Positions 3,874 to 26,140 of a DNA stretch of 45,254 nucleotides are shown here, one piece after another; position 1 is the stretch's first letter; each line of letters starts with the position of its first letter. Both the position numbers and the translations under genes were made by a program. Below the pieces are notes generated by a model, which saw only the letters and a program-made list of their open reading frames with translations, was not told where the DNA came from and did not search any database. The DNA is taken from positions 1-45,254 of the IMG/VR virus record IMGVR_UViG_643348545_000006, one strand, 5' to 3'. Origin of the DNA: a virus (Duplodnaviria > Heunggongvirae > Uroviricota > Caudoviricetes).

Positions 3874-4062
3874 TTATCCAGCCGGTATTTCGTTATTCAG
3901 GTTCAGCGATACTTTTTTTAACGGGAGGCATTCACCGGGGATTTTTTGTTCGTCCCTTACCTGAATGCAGGATGACTTACTGTCATAAATTCCGGTAATC
4001 ACATTTTGTGGCTCACCCGTTATAAGAAAAACGGTCATCACCAGTGCAAATGCTGAAGTCAC
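3874..4062 (-). CDS. ydfD: YdfD-like small lysis protein
   Basis: 62-aa translation MTSAFALVMTVFLITGEPQNVITGIYDSKSSCIQV... closely matches recalled Qin YdfD; translationally coupled (4-nt overlap) to dicB upstream. Confidence 0.75.
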   Translation of the reverse strand: MTSAFALVMTVFLITGEPQNVITGIYDSKSSCIQVRDEQKIPGECLPLKKVSLNLNNEIPAG

Positions 4063-4247
4063 TGCTGTTCTCCGATAATACCAAGTTCAAGAAGGGCAAT
4101 TCTGGAAAGTATGGAATTATCATTGAGAAGATAAGGTTCATATTTTCTCATCTTAATGGCATCTTCCGTAAACTCCCGGTTACTGAGCAGAACACCAATA
4201 TCAAAACAACCTTCAGACGTATTAACGTTTGGTAATAACGTTTCCAT
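4059..4247 (-). CDS. dicB: Cell division inhibitor DicB
   Basis: 62-aa translation METLLPNVNTSEGCFDIGV...FTEDAI... closely matches recalled E. coli DicB (MKTLLPNVNTSEGCFEIGV...); same size; sits directly downstream of DicF as in Qin. Confidence 0.85.
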   Translation of the reverse strand: METLLPNVNTSEGCFDIGVLLSNREFTEDAIKMRKYEPYLLNDNSILSRIALLELGIIGEQQ

Positions 4248-4427: not shown

Positions 4428-4480
4428 GGGCGGCAGAGCAGTCACGGAGTAAAACTGATACCGCCAAATGTCACCAGAAA
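4428..4480 (-). ncRNA. dicF: DicF small RNA (ftsZ-targeting sRNA)
   Basis: Minus-strand sequence TTTCTGGTGACATTTGGCGGTATCAGTTTTACTCCGTGACTGCTCTGCCGCCC followed by a T-run matches recalled 53-nt DicF with one mismatch; upstream 8-bp stem (4517-4552) fits a processing structure. Confidence 0.8.
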
Positions 4481-5589: not shown

Positions 5590-5687
5590 GTTCTTACGCC
5601 TCGGGCTGGCTACTTACCCCCTGACCACTGCCTGGTAACTCGAAGTATTGCCCTGCGTTCTGTGGGGAGGGTGGGTGATGAATAAAC

Positions 5688-5728
5688 AATAGCACTGCTA
5701 TTTTATTCTGTAAATAGTAATGCTATTG
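5688..5728. promoter_or_regulatory. Left operator pair (OL-like): two 17-bp palindromic repressor sites
   Basis: AATAGCACTGCTATT (5688-5702, dyad-symmetric about a central base) and AAATAGTAATGCTATTG (5712-5728), centres 25 bp apart; same motif family recurs in the repressor/cro intergenic region. Confidence 0.55.
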
Positions 5729-5741
5729 TTTTTTGGAGGTA

Positions 5742-5768
5742 AGAAAAAAAAACCACCCGAAGGTGGTT
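5742..5768 (-). terminator. Rho-independent terminator ending the repressor-antitoxin-toxin operon
   Basis: On the minus strand, stem AACCACC / GGTGGTT with a 4-nt loop followed by a run of 9 T; located just after the toxin stop and before the left operators. Confidence 0.6.
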
Positions 5769-5782
5769 GTTGGTAGGAATGA

Positions 5783-6073
5783 TTAACAGCTTTTGTTTGG
5801 ATACTGCCTTCGTGAGTGAACTACATTTACGATCTCGATGTTAGATGCTGTTACTCGGTAAAGTATTATGTAGTTAGGATGGGTCACTATCTCACGAAGG
5901 CCTAGAGCTCTTTCGCTTGGTGGATACAGGTAAGGGTGTTCAGTAAGTGACAAAACTGATGTTTCAATGCGTATTTTTAGTCTACGTGCAGCGGGAGGGT
6001 TTTCCTTGGCAATATAGGCTACGATCTGACGCAAATCATCACGCGCAGAAGGTAGCCATAAAATGGGCAGCAT
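5783..6073 (-). CDS. RelE/ParE-family type II toxin
   Basis: 96-aa translation has the RelE/ParE-like pattern (LPILWLPSARDDL...YIAKENP...GLREIVTHPNYIILYRV...IEIVNVVHSRR); start overlaps the upstream small ORF by 1 nt. Confidence 0.8.
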   Translation of the reverse strand: MLPILWLPSARDDLRQIVAYIAKENPPAARRLKIRIETSVLSLTEHPYLYPPSERALGLREIVTHPNYIILYRVTASNIEIVNVVHSRRQYPNKSC

Positions 6074-6264
6074 TACTCACTCCTGTTCGTCGAAGCTATT
6101 TGCGCAATAAGGTTTTCCATTTCAGCCATTACTTCGTCATGCGGAATTGCAGGACGGGGGTCTGCGAGGCTTGCTGCCACTTTGGTGCGTAACCATTCGT
6201 TATAGCTGTTTTCTTGTTCGATTGTTTCAAATTCTGAAATTATCGGGGAAAGGACTGTACTCAT
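6073..6264 (-). CDS. Putative antitoxin (63 aa) partnered with the RelE/ParE toxin
   Basis: Small acidic ORF directly upstream of and overlapping the toxin gene; GAGGAGG ribosome binding site; 17 bp after the repressor stop, suggesting co-transcription. Confidence 0.65.
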   Translation of the reverse strand: MSTVLSPIISEFETIEQENSYNEWLRTKVAASLADPRPAIPHDEVMAEMENLIAQIASTNRSE

Positions 6265-6281
6265 GTTCTAACCTCCTCAGA

Positions 6282-6782
6282 TTAGGCGCGAAGACCTTTT
6301 TGCGCCTCTAGCCACCGCGCAACGGTTTCTTCAATTGATTCTTTTTTCTCCTTCATTTCCTTAAGCATTTTCTCTTTGTCTTCTTTTGGGAAAGCCCTGA
6401 ACGTCTGGATCAAATCTCGCTCTATAGGTTCTATATTAAACGGAAGTTCGTTTTCCGATTGTTCCATCTCTGCGGGTAAAGCGACAACATTATCCTGCTG
6501 CAGTTCTTGGGGGTACATCCTTACAATTCGTAACAAGTCTGCCATATCTGGTCTAATTGACTCAGGCGGAACTTGTAGCAACCCAGCGAACTTGATAACA
6601 GCCTCTAGATTTAAAGGTGTCTGACCATTTAGATAATGGCTTACTGCCCCTTGTGTCGAAAAACCCAGAATTTCTGCCGCACGCTCTTGGGTTAACCCAA
6701 GTTGAGTTTTTTTCGTCGTCCAGATTTCTTTCAGTCTCTGGGCGGCTTGCAGGTCGATCTCTGACAGGGGTTTTCTTTTCAT
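6282..6782 (-). CDS. Prophage repressor, HTH XRE family (cI/RacR-like position), no S24 peptidase domain evident
   Basis: 166 aa with N-terminal helix-turn-helix (QERAAEILGFSTQGAVSHYLNG); divergent from a Cro-like gene across an operator-containing intergenic region. Confidence 0.8.
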   Translation of the reverse strand: MKRKPLSEIDLQAAQRLKEIWTTKKTQLGLTQERAAEILGFSTQGAVSHYLNGQTPLNLEAVIKFAGLLQVPPESIRPDMADLLRIVRMYPQELQQDNVVALPAEMEQSENELPFNIEPIERDLIQTFRAFPKEDKEKMLKEMKEKKESIEETVARWLEAQKGLRA

Positions 6783-6816
6783 ACCTTCAATTCTAATAAG
6801 ATTATTAATCTCTTTG

Positions 6817-6858
6817 AAATAGCAGTGCTATTTACTTTTAAAAATAACAATGCTATTA
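6817..6858. promoter_or_regulatory. Right operator pair (OR-like) in the repressor/cro divergent promoter region
   Basis: AAATAGCAGTGCTATTT (6817-6833, 17-bp palindrome) and AAATAACAATGCTATTA (6842-6858), centres 25 bp apart, between divergent repressor and cro-like genes. Confidence 0.55.
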
Positions 6859-6889
6859 ATATTCATGGTCACATAACATGAGGTGAACA

Positions 6890-7153
6890 ATGAATCTTGG
6901 AGAATATTTGCATCATTCCCGTATAACCCAGAAAGATTTTGCTGAAATTGTTGGGGTAACCCAAGGGATGGTAAGCCATGTTATTACTGGACGGGCGAAA
7001 CTTACGGGGGGGAAAGTTTTACGCTGGTGTGAAGCAACAGGGTGGGTAGTGACCCCGCACGAGATTGATAGCAGTACTTACCCCAACCCAACCGATGGCA
7101 TACCTGTTGACTATCAGGCTAACACACAACCCGCGCTGGGAGTTGATTCATGA
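6890..7153 (+). CDS. Cro-like HTH regulator (YdaS-like)
   Basis: 87 aa, HTH motif (QKDFAEIVGVTQGMVSHVITG), divergent from the repressor; first gene of the rightward operon. Confidence 0.7.
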   Translation: MNLGEYLHHSRITQKDFAEIVGVTQGMVSHVITGRAKLTGGKVLRWCEATGWVVTPHEIDSSTYPNPTDGIPVDYQANTQPALGVDS

Positions 7154-7575
7154 AAATCAAACATGAACACATCCGCATGGCGATGAATGCCTGGGCATAT
7201 CCTGATGGTGAGAAAGTGCCTGCAGCTGAAATAGCCCGGACTTATTTCGAACTTGGGATGACGTTCCCGGAACTGTACGACGACAGCCATCCGGAAGCCC
7301 TGGCCCGTAATACCCAGAAAATTTTCCGCTGGGTGGAGAAGGATACGCCTGATGCTGTTGAAAAAATTCAGGCGCTGTTACCGGCGATCGAAAAGGCGAT
7401 GCCGCCTTTGCTGGTGGCCCGTATGCGCAGTCACAGTTCTGAGTATTACCGGGAGATTGTCGAACGGCGGGATCGGCTGGTGAAGGATGTCGACGATTTT
7501 GTTGCGTCAGCGGTCGTTTTGTATGACCAGATAAATCGCGGCGGCCCGGCAGGGAATGCTGTGGTGATGCACTAA
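7150..7575 (+). CDS. YdaT-like early regulator (CII-position protein)
   Basis: 141 aa beginning MKIKHEHI, as recalled for Rac YdaT; overlaps the cro-like stop by 4 nt. Confidence 0.55.
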   Translation: MKIKHEHIRMAMNAWAYPDGEKVPAAEIARTYFELGMTFPELYDDSHPEALARNTQKIFRWVEKDTPDAVEKIQALLPAIEKAMPPLLVARMRSHSSEYYREIVERRDRLVKDVDDFVASAVVLYDQINRGGPAGNAVVMH

Positions 7576-10105: not shown

Positions 10106-10543
10106 TTGCCGGAGGCGCTTATGGCAAAAGTATTTACACAAGAAGAGCGGGAAAAAATTAAAGGGCAGGTTGTTGAACTTGTACGTCTGAGCGGTCGCGA
10201 GACGTTGCGGCAACTGGAAGCCAAGACAGGTACGACAAGATATCTGATGAGTGTTCTCGCCAGAGAGCTGGTTGCCAGTGGCGATGTATACAACTCTGGT
10301 TACGGGTTATTCCCGCCTGAACAGGCGCGTAAGGACTGGCAAAACGCCCGCAAAAAACTCTCAAGGGCAAATCTGAAGAAACCATCTGTGGTTGATCCTG
10401 ACCTTATCTGGTCATTACCAGACGGAGAAATACGCCGCTACGACAGGCGTCAAAACATAATCTGTAGCGAGTGCCGGAAGAGTGAAGTTATGCAGCGCAT
10501 ATTGTCGTTTTATCAGGGGGATGTTCGGTATTTATTGAAGTGA
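10106..10543 (+). CDS. Hypothetical phage protein (145 aa)
   Basis: ORF abutting the previous gene stop; no recognisable motif beyond a CxxC pair. Confidence 0.5.
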   Translation: MPEALMAKVFTQEEREKIKGQVVELVRLSGRETLRQLEAKTGTTRYLMSVLARELVASGDVYNSGYGLFPPEQARKDWQNARKKLSRANLKKPSVVDPDLIWSLPDGEIRRYDRRQNIICSECRKSEVMQRILSFYQGDVRYLLK

Positions 10544-10710
10544 CGAGATTAAAGTGCATTAGTTCAGATGCAAATTGACATTTTGTGGCACAGGGTAGAG
10601 CTAGCGTGGTTGTCCGCTTTGTGCCAGAAGCGGACATAGCAGGTGCCAGATGCATTTGTTATTCTTCATTGAATTGAGCAGTATCCTTAACAGGAACTCT
10701 GAATACATAA

Positions 10711-11349
10711 ATGAAGATGAAAAACATGTCTGAAGTGTTGACCCAAGAAAAGCTTATTTTTGTTGCCCAGAGACTAAAGGCCCTCGCGCAGTCAGGCCTG
10801 ACCTATTCAAAAGACGTCTTTGACAAGGAACGCTATGAAGCCTTGCGTGAAATTGCCGCTGGACTGCTGAGTTCGCAGTTTGATATTAGCCGCAATGATT
10901 TGTTTCATGTATCGGAAACGGGTTACGCGACGCCCAAAACAGATGTGCGTGCGTTTATCCTGCGTAATAATCGTATTCTGATGGTGAAAGAGGCTGCAGA
11001 TGGATTATGGAGTCTTCCTGGCGGATGGGCAGATGTTGGAGATACACCTTCTGAAGCTGTGCGTCGAGAGGTCGAAGAAGAAACCGGATTAAAAGTCAGA
11101 GTGACTAAACTATTGGGAGTTTGGGATCGTAATCTTCACGGCCATCCGCCTTTACCCTGGCATGTTTACAAGCTGATTTTTCTCTGTGAAGAAGTAGGTG
11201 GCAGCCTGTCAATCAGCCATGAGTCACTCGATGCTGATTTTTTTGATGTCAACGACCTGCCTGAATTGTCGCTTTCAAGAATTGTGCCTGAGCAGATTGC
11301 TGTCAGCCTGAGAGTAGCGAAAGGTGATGAAAAAACATGGTTTGATTAA
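10711..11349 (+). CDS. Nudix hydrolase with N-terminal extension
   Basis: Canonical Nudix box GGWADVGDTPSEAVRREVEEETGL (Gx5Ex7REuxEExGu); coding sequence more AT-rich than the phage backbone. Confidence 0.85.
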   Translation: MKMKNMSEVLTQEKLIFVAQRLKALAQSGLTYSKDVFDKERYEALREIAAGLLSSQFDISRNDLFHVSETGYATPKTDVRAFILRNNRILMVKEAADGLWSLPGGWADVGDTPSEAVRREVEEETGLKVRVTKLLGVWDRNLHGHPPLPWHVYKLIFLCEEVGGSLSISHESLDADFFDVNDLPELSLSRIVPEQIAVSLRVAKGDEKTWFD

Positions 11350-11372
11350 CTTTCTTCTGCAACCATTAAGGA

Positions 11373-12017
11373 ATGGCAATGATATTCAACGCTAAGGGTT
11401 TTTTATTCGATATGGACGGTACGCTGGTTGATTCAACAGCCGTAGTGGAAAGCGTCTGGAGAGATTTTTGTGCAGAATACGGTCTTGATACTCAGGCTGT
11501 GATTGCTTACGCACACGGGCGGCAAACGATTGATACACTGACGCATTTTATTGGTGCAGGTGAGAAAACCAATAAAATCGCGGCCTCACTCGAAGAGGTT
11601 GAAATCAACACGACAGAAGGCGTTACTGAAGTAAAGGGGGCCGCTGCACTCTTATCAAAACTGCCACCGGATAGCTGGGCACTTGTCACTTCTGCAGGCA
11701 GAATGCTTGCCGAAAACAGGATGAAAGCGGCTAATCTCCCCTTACCCATAGTAATGGTGTGTGCAGAAGATGTAATGACGGGAAAACCAAGTCCCGAGGG
11801 TTACATCAAAGCAGCTTTGGCTTTGGGCCTTGAGCCTGGTGAATGCGTGGTATTTGAGGATGCATCTGCGGGTATAAAAGCAGGGCTGGCAAGTGGAGCT
11901 TCGGTAATAGCTGTTCAGCCTGACGCTCTGGGATCATCTGAAGCCCATGCCGTCAGCGAACTGTCTGACATTATGGTCAAGATTTCCGGAGAACGTTTCA
12001 ATATCATCTGTGGTTAA
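11373..12017 (+). CDS. HAD-superfamily phosphatase (beta-phosphoglucomutase-like subfamily)
   Basis: Motif I FDMDGTLVDS at the N-terminus, GKPSPEGY and FEDASAGIKAG downstream motifs characteristic of HAD sugar phosphatases. Confidence 0.85.
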   Translation: MAMIFNAKGFLFDMDGTLVDSTAVVESVWRDFCAEYGLDTQAVIAYAHGRQTIDTLTHFIGAGEKTNKIAASLEEVEINTTEGVTEVKGAAALLSKLPPDSWALVTSAGRMLAENRMKAANLPLPIVMVCAEDVMTGKPSPEGYIKAALALGLEPGECVVFEDASAGIKAGLASGASVIAVQPDALGSSEAHAVSELSDIMVKISGERFNIICG

Positions 12018-12581
12018 TCACGTTACACAATACGCATCAATGGACGCTGAGTAGTTCGCGAGTTTTAAACTTCCAACGTCCGCTTTTCGCTCAAAGCGGA
12101 CTAGAAGGTTAGCTTGCGTCGGACTTGGCGTATTTAAAGAAGTGCTGGTGGTGACTGGTTGTTGTGTTCCATTTCTACAGAACAAAATCACAGAAACTAT
12201 ACCCAATAGTTGTATTGAATCACTGACGAGACAGCCTCATATTTATCAGGACTGGTGTACGTCCAATACAGGAGGTTGTGGTGCTGGTTCTCAAATGTGC
12301 GCTGGCTATTGCTGCTGTAATGGCAATTTATTGCCTTGCTGTTGTTCTTATGGATCGCCTTTCTGATTGATTTCATATTGGCGAGGTGACGGGAGTTAAG
12401 TAGAATGGCTGCGGGTGCTTGAGGCTATCTGTCTCAGGCATGAACACCAAAGGCAGATAGAGAAAAGCCCCAGTTAACATTACGCGTCCTGCAAGACGCT
12501 TAACATTAATCTGAGGCCATATCTATGCTCTACACACGTAGGTTAGCCTCTTACGTGCCGAAAGGCAAGGAGAAGCAGGCT

Positions 12582-12737
12582 ATGAAGCAGCAAAAGGCGA
12601 TGCTAATCGCCCTGATCGTCATCTGTTTAACCGTCATAGTGACGGCACTGGTAACGAGGAAAGACCTCTGCGAGGTACGAATCCGAACCGGCCAGACGGA
12701 GGTCGCTGTCTTCACAGCTTACGAACCTGAGGAGTAA
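12582..12737 (+). CDS. hokD: Hok/Gef-family type I toxin (HokD/RelF-like)
   Basis: 51-aa translation MKQQKAMLIALIVICLTVIVTALVTRKDLCEVRIRTGQTEVAVFTAYEPEE matches recalled HokD; structured leader upstream and a hairpin plus terminator downstream. Confidence 0.85.
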   Translation: MKQQKAMLIALIVICLTVIVTALVTRKDLCEVRIRTGQTEVAVFTAYEPEE

Positions 12738-16839: not shown

Positions 16840-16915
16840 GGCCCTTTAGCTCAGTGGTGAGAGCGAGCGACTCATAATCGCCAGGTCGCTGGTTCAAATC
16901 CAGCAAGGGCCACCA
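16840..16915 (+). tRNA. tRNA with CAT anticodon (Met or lysidine-modified Ile2)
   Basis: Manual cloverleaf fold: acceptor GGCCCTT/AAGGGCC, D-stem GCTC/GAGC, anticodon loop CTCATAA, T-loop TTCAAAT, encoded CCA; 76 nt. Confidence 0.85.
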
Positions 16916-16924
16916 TATCACATA

Positions 16925-17001
16925 CCGCCATTAGCTCATCGGGATAGAGCGCCAGCCTTCGGAGCTGGCTGCGCGGGGTTCGAGTCCTCGATGGCGGTCC
17001 A
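16925..17001 (+). tRNA. tRNA-Arg (anticodon read as TCG)
   Basis: Manual cloverleaf fold: acceptor CCGCCAT/ATGGCGG, anticodon stem CCAGC/GCTGG, loop CTTCGGA, T-loop TTCGAGT, encoded CCA; 77 nt. Confidence 0.75.
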
Positions 17002-17014
17002 TTATCAGCATCAT

Positions 17015-17091
17015 GCGTTGTTAGCTCAGCCGGACAGAGCAATTGCCTTCTAAGCAATCGGTCACTGGTTCGAATCCAGTACAACGCGCCA
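17015..17091 (+). tRNA. tRNA-Arg (anticodon TCT, AGA-decoding)
   Basis: Manual cloverleaf fold: acceptor GCGTTGT/ACAACGC, anticodon stem ATTGC/GCAAT, loop CTTCTAA, T-loop TTCGAAT, encoded CCA; 77 nt. Confidence 0.85.
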
Positions 17092-17399
17092 CACTTATTT
17101 TTTCTGTCTCACTTTGGTGGACCTGTTTGTTGCTAAAAAAGGAAGCATCAGGTGGTTAGCCGGGTATCAGTCATGCCCCGAAAATTTTAAATGTCTCACA
17201 ATTCAGTCAGTTGACAGTTGCCTGTCAGACTGAGTATTTGTTAAAAGAAACTGGCATGGTGAATCCCCCTGTGCGGAGGGGCATATCAGCGACAGGTGGT
17301 TGGTTATATCCCTTATCTGGTGCGGGTTCAGGTGCTGATACTGAACTCACCGGGAGGCACCCGGCATCATGCTGTATACAGAGATTAGGCATATATCCA

Positions 17400-17424
17400 G
17401 GCTCCTCATCGCAGGAGCCTTTTT
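17400..17424 (+). terminator. Rho-independent terminator, paired back-to-back with a minus-strand terminator hairpin (17431-17458)
   Basis: Stem GGCTCCT / AGGAGCC with 6-nt loop followed by 5 T; immediately followed by A7 plus stem CCCGCG / CGCGGG, which is a terminator when read on the minus strand. Confidence 0.5.
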
Positions 17425-17656
17425 ACATGCAAAAAAAGCCCGCGCCGGGAGACGCGGGCAGCAAGGAATAAACAACAAAACGTGAAGTAATCAATTTTTC
17501 AGCTGGCGAATAATACCCGACAGTAATCACTCTGCGCAACTGCGCGGCCTTTTTCGTATTGCGGGCTGTAGTCTTCCTTCTGTCATTGTCCTGTAACTTC
17601 CGGACTTCAGCCCGCCCCTTATCTGACTCACAACATTATCCCGACCGGGAGGATTC

Positions 17657-24240: not shown

Positions 24241-26140
24241 TATGATGAGTGCTGTCACAACAGCATTACAGCCCCTGATAAGGGCATTGCCGGTGACGCC
24301 AGTTGAATGGGCTGATCAAAATTATTATCTGCCTAAAGAATCTTCATATGGTGAGGGAGAATGGAAAACGCTGCCGTTCCAGATCGCCATCATGAACAGC
24401 ATGGGGAATGATCAGATCCGGACTGTTAATCTGATTAAATCTGCCCGTGTTGGCTATACAAAGATGTTGCTGGGAGTCGCCGGGTATTTTATTGAGCATA
24501 AATCCCGAAACAGTCTGCTTTTTCAGCCCACGGATTCTGCCGCTGAAGATTTTATGAAGTCTCACGTGGAGGCGACGATTCGGGACGTGCCATGCCTGAA
24601 AGATCTTTCCCCGTGGCTGGGACGTAAACATCGTGACAATACTCTCACGCTGAAACGCTTTTCATCGGGGGTGGGCTTCTGGTGCCTGGGTGGTGCGGCA
24701 GCAAAAAACTACCGTGAAAAATCCGTGGATGTGGTCTGCTATGACGAACTTTCCTCGTTCGAGCCGGATGTCGAAAAAGAGGGCTCGCCAACCCTGCTGG
24801 GAGATAAGCGTATTGAGGGCTCTGTATGGCCCAAATCCATTCGCGGCTCGACGCCTAAAATCAAAGGCACCTGCCAGATCGAAAAAGCGGCCAACGAGTC
24901 GGCGCATTTCATGCGTTTTTATGTGCCCTGCCCACACTGTGGGGAGGAGCTGTATCTGAAATTTGGCGATGAATCCACGCCTTTTGGCCTTAAATGGGAG
25001 AAGGACAGCCCCGAAAGCGTTTTCTACCTCTGTGAACATCATGGCTGCGTGATCCATCAGTCTGAGCTTGACCAGAGCAACGGGCGGTGGATCTGTGAAA
25101 ACACGGGGATGTGGACCCGTGACGGTCTGACGTTTTTCAGCGCCGCGGATAATGAAATTCCGCCGCCGCGCTCCATCACATTCCATATCTGGACGGCGTA
25201 CAGTCCGTTCACCACCTGGGTACAGATTGTCTATGACTGGCTGGATGCACTGAAAGATCCCAACGGCCTGAAAACCTTTGTGAACACCACGCTGGGCGAG
25301 ACCTGGGAAGAGGCCGTGGGCGAAAAACTCGATCACCAGGTACTGATGGATAAGGTTGTGCGTTACACGGCGGCGGTGCCTGCCCGGGTGGTTTATCTGA
25401 CGGCGGGCATTGACTCGCAGCGAAACCGTTTTGAGATGTATGTCTGGGGATGGGCTCCGGGAGAGGAAGCCTTTCTGGTGGATAAAATCATCATTATGGG
25501 GCGTCCCGATGAGGAAGAGACGCTGTTACGTGTGGATGTGGCGATCAACAAAAAATACCGCCATGCAGACGGAACCGAAATGACCATTTCCCGTGTCTGC
25601 TGGGACACCGGGGGGATCGATGGCGAAATTGTCTATCAGAGGTCAAAAAAACACGGTGTTTTCCGGGTGCTGCCGGTAAAAGGTGCATCTGTTTATGGCA
25701 AGCCGGTGATCACCATGCCAAAAACCCGCAATCAGCGGGGCGTGTATCTGTGCGAAGTGGGGACGGACACCGCAAAAGAAATTCTCTATGCCCGTATGAA
25801 AGCCGAGCCCACGCCTGCGGATGAAGCCACGTCGTATGCCATCCGTTTTCCTGATGATCCGGAGATTTTTTCGCAGACAGAGGCGCAGCAACTGGTCGCG
25901 GAAGAGCTTGTGGAGAAGTGGGAAAAAGGAAAGATGCGTCTGCTGTGGGATAACAAAAAGCGGCGTAACGAAGCGCTGGACTGCCTGGTGTATGCCTACG
26001 CGGCATTACGTGTGTCCGTGCAACGCTGGCAGCTTGATCTGGCTGTACTGGCAAAATCCCGGGAAGAAGATACGACCCGGCCAACCCTTAAAGAACTGGC
26101 AGCGAAGCTGTCCGGAGGAGTGAATGGTTACAGTCGCTGA
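24212..26140 (+). CDS. A: Terminase large subunit (lambda gpA-like)
   Basis: Start MNIS... chosen by alignment to recalled lambda gpA (VEWADxNYYLPKES, HFMRFxVxCPHCGEE, WTAYSPFTTWVQIV, KKRRNEALDC all conserved). Confidence 0.9.
   Translation: MNISEQQLNNMMSAVTTALQPLIRALPVTPVEWADQNYYLPKESSYGEGEWKTLPFQIAIMNSMGNDQIRTVNLIKSARVGYTKMLLGVAGYFIEHKSRNSLLFQPTDSAAEDFMKSHVEATIRDVPCLKDLSPWLGRKHRDNTLTLKRFSSGVGFWCLGGAAAKNYREKSVDVVCYDELSSFEPDVEKEGSPTLLGDKRIEGSVWPKSIRGSTPKIKGTCQIEKAANESAHFMRFYVPCPHCGEELYLKFGDESTPFGLKWEKDSPESVFYLCEHHGCVIHQSELDQSNGRWICENTGMWTRDGLTFFSAADNEIPPPRSITFHIWTAYSPFTTWVQIVYDWLDALKDPNGLKTFVNTTLGETWEEAVGEKLDHQVLMDKVVRYTAAVPARVVYLTAGIDSQRNRFEMYVWGWAPGEEAFLVDKIIIMGRPDEEETLLRVDVAINKKYRHADGTEMTISRVCWDTGGIDGEIVYQRSKKHGVFRVLPVKGASVYGKPVITMPKTRNQRGVYLCEVGTDTAKEILYARMKAEPTPADEATSYAIRFPDDPEIFSQTEAQQLVAEELVEKWEKGKMRLLWDNKKRRNEALDCLVYAYAALRVSVQRWQLDLAVLAKSREEDTTRPTLKELAAKLSGGVNGYSR

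Follow-up and report, generated by a model that had tools for sequence, protein, structure and literature searches.

What does a toxin-antitoxin pair do directly downstream of the repressor gene of a lambdoid prophage, in the slot that rexA and rexB occupy in phage lambda? The question is raised by a 45,254-nucleotide stretch of Caudoviricetes DNA (IMG/VR record IMGVR_UViG_643348545_000006; hereafter the window), for which a first-pass annotation had proposed a minus-strand operon of repressor, small antitoxin and RelE/ParE-like toxin, and had likened its layout to lambda cI-rexA-rexB-tIMM-OL/PL. On reanalysis we reproduced the three minus-strand open reading frames, and the 17-nt gap with its GAGGAGG site, the terminator at 5742-5768 and the operator pair were all recovered at the same positions. 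The comparison with lambda also holds, and the same arrangement is found in the experimentally studied paaR2-paaA2-parE2 locus (PMC8630535), where paaA2-parE2 have likewise been described as standing in for rexA and rexB (PMC9986795). We consider it highly likely that the window contains the immunity region of a lambdoid Escherichia coli prophage whose repressor operon is a paaR-paaA-parE module, working by the mechanism proposed below. As this layout has already been published for E. coli O157:H7 prophages, the locus represents an uncharacterised allele of a known system rather than a discovery.

Identity of the antitoxin and toxin

The gene immediately downstream of the repressor (6073-6264, minus strand) encodes a 63-aa protein with a pI of 4.4 (11 acidic and 4 basic residues), whose sole Pfam match is the PaaA2 antitoxin family (PF21217; E 2.9e-22, 78.8 bits against a cut-off of 27); with PaaA2 alone shown by Pfam, no DNA-binding domain was found. 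The protein also matches the NCBIfam model TA_RelB_antitoxin (NF050103; 92.1 bits, cut-off 50, E 1.6e-26) and the PaaA2 structure (PDB 3zbe; E 1.7e-22), and it is 85.7% identical to the antitoxin of a second O157:H7 paralogue (L002) and 63.5% identical to PaaA2. The toxin gene (5783-6073, minus strand), whose ATG overlaps the antitoxin stop codon in the sequence TAATG, encodes a 96-aa protein with a pI of 9.7 that is 85.3% identical to the L002 toxin and 64.1% identical to ParE2. Here the earlier RelE/ParE label survived in part when checked by profile search: the ParE half was supported by Pfam ParE_toxin (E 4e-18; 66.2 bits, cut-off 23), while the RelE half failed, with NCBIfam TIGR02385 (RelE_StbE) reaching 26.9 bits, under its cut-off of 27.9. 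Residues 1-93 match ParE2 of E. coli O157:H7 (PDB 5cw7_B, E 5.7e-35), and the best solved relatives of the toxin are all ParE proteins, which further disfavours a RelE identity. Judged by these profile and structure matches, the toxin is of the ParE type and not a RelE-type mRNA interferase.

Estimates of dN/dS were 0.08-0.15 for the antitoxin and 0.05 for the toxin against the O157 paralogue, or 0.05-0.15 for the pair overall with synonymous sites near saturation, and this purifying selection is in keeping with both genes being functional. The pair probably falls in the PaaA1/ParE1 specificity group, by analogy with the lack of cross-neutralisation of ParE2 by PaaA1 that is reported in PMC4803016.

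A PaaR-type repressor with a lambda-CI-like N-terminal domain

Upstream of the pair and on the same strand lies an HTH gene with a PaaR C-terminal domain (6282-6782), which encodes a 166-aa immunity repressor of the PaaR family (Pfam HTH_3, E 1.7e-9). Its N-terminal part (residues 2-82) is an HTH domain resembling that of lambda CI, basic N-terminal arm included (match to PDB 1lmb, E 1.6e-9), and a PaaR/DicA-type C-terminal domain of ~50 aa spans about residues 103-166. The latter is 48% identical to PaaR2 over 44 aa (E 2e-13) and 56% identical to the second O157:H7 paralogue over 64 aa (E 2e-21), and the NCBIfam model of the DicA C-terminus matches as well (E 9.8e-7). In BLASTP comparison with PaaR2 only the C-terminal domain aligned, with no match for the N-terminal domain, and no Peptidase_S24 domain (the CI-type autopeptidase) was matched in either Pfam or NCBIfam. 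On its domain matches, the protein is a natural fusion of a lambda-CI DNA-binding domain with a PaaR C-terminal domain that lacks the S24 peptidase; its resemblance to CI is limited to the N-terminal domain, and it is not an S24 LexA-like, CI-type protein overall. No solved structure of the PaaR C-terminal domain was found, the PDB entries 7nkv, 8c3k and 8c3l being confined to the N-terminal domain of PaaR2.

A PaaA2-family antitoxin, a ParE-family toxin and a PaaR C-terminal domain together identify the three-gene paaR-paaA-parE module, which was characterised in the CP-933P immunity region by Hallez 2010 and Jurenas 2021 (PMC8630535).

Predicted operators, promoters and terminator

The predicted repressor operator is a 15-bp palindrome, AATAGCASTGCTATT, of which two copies lie in the 107-bp OR region (6783-6889) and two at the OL/PL equivalent (5686-5727, minus strand), where they stand over a predicted leftward promoter. 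At OR the copy at 6818-6832 is perfect and the one at 6843-6857 carries two mismatches; at OL, with a spacing of 25 bp centre to centre, a perfect copy at 5688-5702 is accompanied by one with two mismatches at 5713-5727. The motif gave 6 matches against 0.84 expected, a number reached in none of 100 shuffles, so the four-operator pattern is not due to chance. It was also present in all 42 related loci with the same repressor type and in none of the 36 with other types. A search for a third operator on each side, allowing up to three mismatches, returned only chance-level sites elsewhere (11372 and 42358).

The OL operators overlap both elements of the predicted sigma-70-like PL (-35 TTTACA at 5714; extended -10 TGnTATTGT ending at 5686), downstream of which are DUF1391/ydfA-like and dicB genes. 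Within OR, PR was assigned by eye from the sequence on the plus strand (-35 TTTACT at about 6831-6836; -10 TATTAA at about 6854-6859), with both elements likewise overlapped by the OR operators, and PRM is predicted on the minus strand (-35 TTCAAA at 6818-6813; -10 TAGAAT at 6795-6790). As only 7 nt separate the PRM -10 element from the repressor ATG, a leaderless repressor mRNA is implied. Relative to the predicted PRM start, the perfect OR operator is centred at about -43, the placement of OR2 in lambda. With two operators per side, compared to three in lambda and three to four in CP-933P, negative autoregulation of PRM is left unaccounted for. A different 14-bp palindrome lies within the PRM spacer (6794-6807).

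Repressor and antitoxin genes are separated by a 17-nt spacer (6265-6281, minus strand; TAAtctGAGGAGGttagaacATG) that places the GAGGAGG ribosome-binding site 7 nt ahead of the antitoxin ATG and in which we found no promoter-like or terminator-like element. The operon ends at an intrinsic terminator (5742-5768, minus strand), the equivalent of tIMM, with a 7-bp stem and a 4-nt loop (AACCACC-ttcg-GGTGGTT at 5768-5751) followed by T9 to about 5742; its fold of -10.4 kcal/mol (z -2.7) was equalled in 1 of 200 shuffles. The PaaR1-type, PaaR2-type and phage Evi loci have a hairpin and T-run at the same position with other stem sequences. We infer that repressor, paaA and parE are co-transcribed in this allele, a reading with which the sequence signals are compatible.

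The divergent cro/ydaT side and the host prophage

Divergent from the repressor gene, an 87-aa HTH regulator (6890-7153, plus strand; Pfam HTH_3, E 4.9e-6; PHROG 35, transcriptional repressor, E 3.7e-16) is the equivalent of Cro/YdaS; with only 31-33% identity to YdaS of both O157-type loci, it is specific to its own immunity type. The next gene (7150-7575, plus strand) encodes a 141-aa YdaT, the CII-equivalent activator (Pfam YdaT_toxin, E 7.8e-10; PHROG 163, CII-like activator, E 1.3e-46), which matches CP-933P YdaT (PDB 8bt1, E 4.5e-87) and is 93% identical to YdaT of the PaaR2-type locus. At the junction of the two genes, a predicted YdaT operator OM (7143-7160, plus strand; TTGATTcatgaaAATCAA) perfectly matches the published YdaT site TTGATTN6AATCAA, and the OM position in CP-933P is a YdaT-dependent, PRE-like start of the repressor operon (PMC9986795). 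The number of OM motifs in the whole window was not above chance, being reached in 72 of 100 shuffles, and the information therefore lies in the perfect match at this site and in its position alone. Thus the window has a divergent ydaS(cro)-ydaT(cII) pair together with a second operator/promoter set (PL) past the toxin, and all 80 of the related prophage loci are alike in this respect.

The window prophage has a full set of full-length structural genes, and in the closest genome (strain DETEC-S792) it is integrated beside rspB, which is the neighbourhood of Qin in K-12. A Ren-like protein, a type of exclusion cargo, is encoded at 10106-10543.

Comparison with known immunity regions

The closest experimental precedent is paaR2-paaA2-parE2 of CP-933P/Sp12 (Hallez 2010; Jurenas 2021; PDB 3zbe, 5cw7, 5cze, 5czf and 7nkv), with which the window shares gene order and strand logic. 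In that prophage the three genes form one operon, and PaaR2, shown by 5′ RACE and N-terminal sequencing to be translated from a leaderless PRM transcript, is an analogue of CI that represses PR- and PL-like promoters, while YdaS plays the part of Cro and YdaT that of CII (PMC8630535). Further likenesses to the window include the terminator, OL/PL and the divergent ydaS(cro)-ydaT(cII) followed by O/P, as well as an identical YdaT operator, a -10-to-ATG geometry compatible with leaderless transcription and a repressor without an S24 peptidase. However, the lambda-CI-like N-terminal domain of the window repressor is unrelated to that of PaaR2 (123 aa, compared to 166 aa here), the window operators are the 15-bp AATAGCASTGCTATT at two per side whereas CP-933P has three to four 18-bp repeats of the GTTTAGTAA type, the Cro/YdaS proteins are only about 31% identical, and CP-933P is cryptic.

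The nearest relative of the toxin-antitoxin pair itself is L002, the second O157:H7 paralogue, presumed to be paaR1-paaA1-parE1 of CP-933M by elimination and without a named sequence. Continuous DNA homology of 78.8% with L002 extends over window positions 6412-5377, starting within the repressor C-terminal domain, taking in the pair and the terminator and reaching ydfA, but L002 has another repressor N-terminal domain, OR, operators and cro, and thus a different immunity type. By these sequence differences, the window copy is a separate allele with its own immunity specificity.

The resemblance to lambda lies in a repressor gene followed by two lysogen-expressed cargo genes with a terminator just before OL/PL, operators over divergent promoters, a leaderless repressor mRNA (predicted for the window) and the homologous repressor N-terminal domain described above. 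In contrast to lambda, a type II toxin-antitoxin pair with no relation to RexA and RexB makes up the cargo, the repressor ends in a short helical domain of the PaaR type where lambda CI has an S24 autoprotease domain, two operators were detected on each side in place of three, and YdaT is unrelated to CII. The dicA-dicC region of Qin in K-12 shares a related repressor C-terminal domain, and the window ydfA (DUF1391), dicF and dicB have 90% DNA identity to it, but there dicA is followed directly by ydfA; the toxin-antitoxin pair is thus an insertion relative to the Qin layout.

The concept of a repressor-linked paaA-parE is already published. The biological value of the allele is modest, and its direct value is in annotation: the genes can be named as a PaaR-type repressor, PaaA and ParE. 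In RefSeq genomes with the identical locus, the antitoxin is a "hypothetical protein" in several cases and the repressor is only a "helix-turn-helix domain-containing protein". In this allele a PaaR-family repressor is also directly similar in sequence to lambda CI, which the published PaaR2 is not, and the allele offers a new immunity specificity with a clean, predicted 15-bp palindromic operator. With its full-length structural genes, the window prophage would be better suited than the cryptic CP-933P for studying a repressor-linked pair, including the role of the pair in induction, curing and superinfection.

A proposed role in lysogeny

In the lysogen, the repressor would bind the 15-bp palindromes at OR and OL, silencing PR (cro/ydaS, ydaT and the replication genes) and PL (ydfA through dicF, dicB, exo, xis and int), and from the operator at about -43 it would probably stimulate its own leaderless PRM transcript. 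That transcript would continue across the 17-nt spacer into paaA, with its strong GAGGAGG site, and the translationally coupled parE and stop at the hairpin and T-run at 5768-5742. If the pair is carried on the PRM transcript, antitoxin and toxin would be produced throughout the lysogenic programme and at no other time, as has been shown for paaR2-paaA2-parE2. During establishment, YdaT acting at 7143-7160 may provide a second, PRE-like entry into the repressor operon, by homology with CP-933P.

By homology with PaaA2-ParE2, PaaA would neutralise ParE by wrapping round the toxin, and would be protease-labile, whereas ParE would be stable, nucleoid-associated and SOS-inducing; the lability of PaaA and the induction of SOS by ParE2 are attributed to Hallez 2010 in the introduction of PMC8630535. 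Deletion of the operon, or its replacement through recombination with a heteroimmune phage, would then stop the resupply of PaaA and free ParE, so that the module would stabilise the immunity region or the prophage by addiction. Addiction that stabilises the immunity region is in our analysis the most likely function. This is consistent with the bistable and addictive behaviour of the paaR2-paaA2-parE2 locus (PMC8630535). In the single-cell assays of the CP-933P study, ParE2 activity was detected in neither transcriptional state (PMC8630535), so that stabilisation of an unstable plasmid is the sole demonstrated phenotype.

A complete-looking prophage combined with a repressor that lacks the S24 peptidase may imply an induction route other than RecA-stimulated cleavage. 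We scanned ten open reading frames of the early-right region for an antirepressor and found none. As ParE2 induces SOS, toxin release could itself take part in induction.

Alternative roles for the pair

The foremost alternative, which we regard as unlikely, is that the pair is anti-phage cargo expressed in the lysogen and doing the job of RexAB, such that infection by another phage depletes the labile PaaA, for example through host transcription shut-off or proteolysis, and ParE then aborts or excludes the infecting phage. The pair occupies the same slot as rexAB with expected expression from the lysogenic promoter (PMC9986795), numerous type II toxin-antitoxin systems have proved, in published reports, to serve in defence, and the same prophage encodes the Ren-like protein. 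On the other hand, a scan of the repressor, antitoxin and toxin against the PADLOC-DB v2 models returned zero matches at E values up to 0.01, and ParE2 activation went undetected under CP-933P conditions, the demonstrated phenotype being addiction (PMC8630535). Our literature search turned up no relevant report that links PaaA/ParE, or the ParE proteins of prophages, to defence against phages. An abortive-infection or exclusion role for the pair is therefore speculative. We are similarly doubtful that PaaA-ParE is either a true substitute for RexAB in this sense or a guard that kills recombinants arising from heteroimmune swaps, set off in either case by an infecting phage that cuts PRM transcription or the supply of PaaA, with a non-RecA route of induction.

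It is far less probable that the locus is a self-contained three-component toxin-antitoxin system in which the HTH protein is a mere "split antitoxin" regulator and the prophage location is incidental. Hallez 2010 first described the system in these terms (summary in PMC4803016), and since PaaA lacks the DNA-binding domain that ParD carries in classical parDE, a separate regulator would be needed. The same summary has the PaaA-ParE complex partially repressing the paaR promoter, which is hard to reconcile with an antitoxin without such a domain. However, the same operator is also found at OL, over the early-left promoter, and at PR, which serves cro/ydaT and the replication genes; the repressor gene occupies the dicA/cI position and its N-terminal domain is recognisably lambda-CI-like; PaaR2 represses both PR and PL (PMC8630535); and free-standing paaA-parE pairs in 77 other species do without such a regulator. 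These features favour the reading of the HTH protein as an immunity repressor.

That the repressor alone matters, the pair being cargo in decay and without function, is scarcely credible, for although the characterised homologues reside in cryptic prophages and showed no toxin activity in single-cell assays, homologues of the ParE2 type are toxic and addictive in experiments (PMC8630535), both window genes are intact with the low dN/dS and saturated synonymous sites noted above, their ribosome-binding site and stop/start coupling are preserved, and the pair is kept at at least 90% DNA identity in 69 E. coli genomes.

Distribution and evolution of the module

Of 5,426 complete E. coli genomes, about 70 carry the allele: the N-terminal domain/OR module was found in 70, and 72 contain 80% or more of the full 1.6-kb region. 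In strains DETEC-S792 and S1-CAM-02-A this region (window 5600-7200) is 100% identical to that of the window. Among IMG/VR prophage loci, all 80 have a PaaA-like antitoxin together with the PaaR C-terminal domain and YdaT. In other Proteobacteria, free-standing paaA-parE pairs (annotated as "stability determinant"/ParE) have toxins that are 50-73% identical to the window toxin and the same short upstream antitoxin, yet they occur in varied contexts without a nearby PaaR-type regulator or YdaT. Specifically, a PaaA-like antitoxin, mostly of 62-64 aa, was present at 77 of the 80 toxin loci in other species, and the PaaR C-terminal domain and YdaT were absent from all 80. We considered whether these pairs share an upstream third gene or regulator, but rejected this because the contexts are heterogeneous, and longer antitoxins with a DNA-binding domain were ruled out by the lengths of most of these proteins.

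Homology to the O157 paralogue begins inside the repressor C-terminal domain, at window position 6412. These patterns suggest that a free-standing, two-gene paaA-parE cassette, widespread in Proteobacteria, was captured behind a repressor gene of the PaaR/DicA type. The cassette now travels with the C-terminal domain of the repressor, and immunity types swap the N-terminal domain, the operators and cro among themselves.

Gene order is common to E. coli O157:H7, a paaR2-type strain and the free phage Evi. When we searched the isolated phages in INPHARED with the DNA of the whole locus, no record covered more than 9% of the 1.6-kb region, and at the protein level the ParE2-type toxin was found only in phage Evi, where the toxin gene lies without any annotation.

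Operon structure and protein families

The first-pass annotation had proposed a minus-strand order of repressor, antitoxin, toxin, terminator, left operator pair and early-left genes, and all of these were found where it had placed them. The repressor ORF (6782..6282, 166 aa) is followed by an acidic antitoxin ORF (6264..6073, 63 aa, pI 4.4) and a basic toxin ORF (6073..5783, 96 aa, pI 9.7), all on the minus strand. The ribosome-binding site claimed within the gap ahead of the antitoxin is also present: the 17-nt repressor-antitoxin spacer, TAAtctGAGGAGGttagaacATG, constitutes a strong site 7 nt from the antitoxin start, and the toxin ATG shares bases with the antitoxin stop codon (TAATG). A consensus scan from the repressor stop to the toxin stop detected no promoter-like or terminator-like sites. 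A minus-strand hairpin (AACCACC-ttcg-GGTGGTT, 5768-5751) followed by T9 starts 14 bases past the toxin stop; its folding energy is -10.4 kcal/mol (z = -2.7), with equally good folding in 1 of 200 shuffles. A hairpin and T-run occupy the same position 3' of the toxin gene in the second O157:H7 paralogue locus (L002), the PaaR2-type locus (L003) and phage Evi, with stems that differ in sequence, consistent with a conserved operon-end terminator. Leftward beyond OL lie ydfA-like (DUF1391), DicF, dicB, exonuclease, excisionase and integrase genes.

Pfam gives a single match for the antitoxin, PaaA2 (PF21217; E 2.9e-22, its 78.8 bits clearing a cut-off of 27). Further matches of this protein are to NCBIfam NF050103 (E 1.6e-26) and to the PaaA2 structure from E. 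coli O157:H7 (3zbe, E 1.7e-22). The earlier label "RelE/ParE-like" held for the toxin only in its ParE part: because the protein matches Pfam ParE_toxin (E 4e-18) and, over residues 1-93 without gaps, the solved ParE2 (5cw7_B, E 5.7e-35), with the RelE/StbE model scoring slightly under its cut-off, we assigned it to the ParE family and rejected a RelE-type mRNA interferase. With dN/dS of 0.05-0.15 and synonymous sites near saturation, the two genes are, judged by these rates, under strong purifying selection.

A mosaic repressor locus

The repressor contains an HTH_3 domain, and its residues 2-82, including the basic N-terminal arm, align to the lambda CI N-terminal domain (1lmb, E 1.6e-9). 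With the PaaR2 and L002 repressors it shares only a C-terminal domain of about 45-65 residues, at 48% identity for PaaR2 (E 2e-13) and 56% for the L002 protein (E 2e-21); DicA of Qin carries a weaker version of this domain. Divergent from the repressor are a Cro-like HTH protein (6890-7153, plus strand) and YdaT (7150-7575, plus strand), the latter matching the solved CP-933P YdaT (E 4.5e-87). The published YdaT operator, TTGATTN6AATCAA (PMC9986795), occurs with zero mismatches at the cro/ydaT junction (7143-7160).

For comparison, we took related loci from E. coli genomes. The L003 repressor begins with MQKKE, the experimentally determined PaaR2 N-terminus (Jurenas 2021, PMC8630535), and its PaaA2 and ParE2 match the PDB sequences (over the aligned stretch and 92 aligned residues, respectively), so L003 is of the paaR2-paaA2-parE2 type. 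O157:H7 genomes each have two paaA-parE places, the better match being L002, which by elimination is the other published paralogue, paaR1-paaA1-parE1 of CP-933M. Identities to L002 and L003, respectively, are 85.7% and 63.5% for the antitoxin, 85.3% and 64.1% for the toxin, 84.4% and 92.9% for YdaT, and 32.9% and 31.4% for the Cro-like protein. DNA homology to L002 starts at 6412, within the repressor C-terminal domain, and runs through the toxin-antitoxin pair and terminator to ydfA (5377); the N-terminal domain, OR and cro show no relationship to those of L002. The window locus is therefore, on these alignments, a mosaic in which the N-terminal domain, operators and cro make up a distinct immunity module, joined to a shared one made up of the C-terminal domain and paaA-parE. 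In Qin of K-12, ydfA directly follows dicA.

Operators and promoters

The 15-bp palindrome AATAGCASTGCTATT occurs as perfect copies at 5688-5702 (OL) and 6818-6832 (OR) and, with two mismatches each, at 5713-5727 and 6843-6857, giving the same centre-to-centre spacing of 25 bp at both operators; no further sites with at most two mismatches exist across the 45 kb. Matches in the window number 6 against 0.84 expected, a count reached by 0 of 100 shuffles. At OL, the two sites overlap the -35 (TTTACA) and TG-extended -10 of a leftward sigma-70-like promoter, and at OR they overlap a rightward -35 (TTTACT) and -10 (TATTAA) read by eye from the sequence. In a set of 80 related prophage loci from IMG/VR, 42/42 with the 166-aa repressor type have the motif, against 0/36 with other full-length types, a strict association that supports reading it as the operator for the 166-aa type. 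The predicted PRM (-35 TTCAAA, 17-nt spacer, -10 TAGAAT) adjoins the perfect OR site, whose centre is ~43 bp upstream of the repressor ATG, and its -10 ends 7 nt ahead of that ATG. This predicted geometry corresponds to a leaderless PRM that the repressor activates, an arrangement demonstrated for paaR2 (Jurenas 2021, PMC8630535) and also known for lambda cI. A distinct 14-bp palindrome, TAATAAGATTATTA (6794-6807), lies within the predicted PRM spacer, where it may bind Cro/YdaS or act as an OR3-like element in negative autoregulation.

Distribution and origin

Using blastn, we detected paaA-parE relatives in 841 of 5,426 complete E. coli genomes. The window immunity type occurs in 70 genomes, O104:H4 and O145:H28 strains among them; 72 carry 80% or more of the full 1.6-kb region and 69 the toxin-antitoxin pair at an identity of at least 90%, and since these counts agree, repressor type and toxin-antitoxin allele appear to co-occur in this set. 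All 80 IMG/VR loci encode a repressor with the PaaR C-terminal domain, PaaA and YdaT, arranged alike. Toxins encoded at 80 loci from other species, among them Komagataeibacter, Bartonella, Acidithiobacillus and Polaromonas, show 50-73% identity, and 77 of these loci have a PaaA-like antitoxin, mostly of 62-64 aa; none of the 80 has the PaaR C-terminal domain or YdaT, and upstream genes are heterogeneous. The simplest reading is that enterobacterial lambdoid phages acquired a mobile two-gene cassette in their repressor operon, as also suggested by Jurenas 2021 (PMC8630535). Close relatives of the pair (up to 73% identity) lie on small, high-coverage contigs, probably plasmids, of the acetic-acid bacteria Komagataeibacter/Gluconacetobacter (L006, L008, L009, L031 and others), some of whose antitoxins have the PaaA2-type C-terminal tail (ERRMAERLAKLRK).

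Regulation and function

The layout and lambda analogy are already published. In the paaR2 homologue, the operon structure has been shown, PaaR2 is a CI analogue that represses PR and PL and stimulates PRM at low dose, and the locus is bistable and stabilises a plasmid by addiction; in CP-933P, the Cro role falls to YdaS, and YdaT activates a PRE-like promoter in the manner of CII (PMC8630535). The introduction of that paper, citing Hallez 2010, describes PaaA2 as labile to ClpAP/ClpXP and ParE2 as nucleoid-associated and SOS-inducing. All demonstrated steps come from this homologue, from which we infer the circuit of the window allele. Very probably, the allele would run the same circuit with another operator specificity, PaaA and ParE would be produced only for as long as the lysogenic promoter stays active, and ParE would be freed once the operon is lost or replaced. 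The first-pass proposal that the pair is an exclusion or abortive-infection device seems unlikely: there was no PADLOC match, we found no literature on PaaA/ParE in phage defence, and the CP-933P study saw no activation of the toxin (PMC8630535).

By sequence comparison, three features are specific to the window allele: its repressor joins a lambda-CI-like N-terminal domain to the C-terminal domain of PaaR, its operator sequence is new, and its toxin-antitoxin pair probably falls in the second O157 specificity group. The allele is uncharacterised and lies in a seemingly complete prophage; CP-933P is defective, whereas the window prophage is not obviously so, having full-length integrase, exonuclease, O-like and DnaC-like replication, Q, endolysin, terminase, portal, protease, major head protein, tape measure and J genes. 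The allele is useful for annotation and a possible experimental model. One isolated phage, Evi (LR597642.1), has a PaaR2-type trio with the toxin unannotated; this ORF is intact and ParE2-type (L004 3501-3779, record 24917-25195). Its PaaA2 is labelled "hypothetical protein", as is window-type PaaA in several RefSeq genomes.

Other features of the prophage

A Pfam search found no S24 autopeptidase domain in the repressor, and a scan of early-right ORFs turned up no antirepressor, yet the prophage has a full structural and lysis gene set. The antisense sRNA DicF (4428-4479, minus strand; RF00039, 77 bits against a gathering score of 48) sits in the early-left operon between ydfA-like genes and dicB (4059-4247), in a region 90% identical to Qin of K-12. 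A second toxin-antitoxin system, type I hok/sok (12413-12587, plus strand; sok RF01794, 114.7 bits; ORF 12525-12737), corresponds in place to an annotated hokD in a related genome. The nin-like region (10106-12017, plus strand) carries a Ren-like exclusion protein (10106-10543; PHROG 142, E 1.1e-44), then adjacent genes for a Nudix hydrolase (10711-11349) and a HAD-superfamily hydrolase (11373-12017). At 16840-17430 (plus strand), three tRNA genes, one with a CAT anticodon (tRNA-Ile in RefSeq) and the others Arg-TCG and Arg-TCT, are followed by the sRNA STnc100 (174.6 bits). As in Stx-type lambdoid phages, they lie downstream of genes for a DNA methyltransferase and a Q-like antiterminator.
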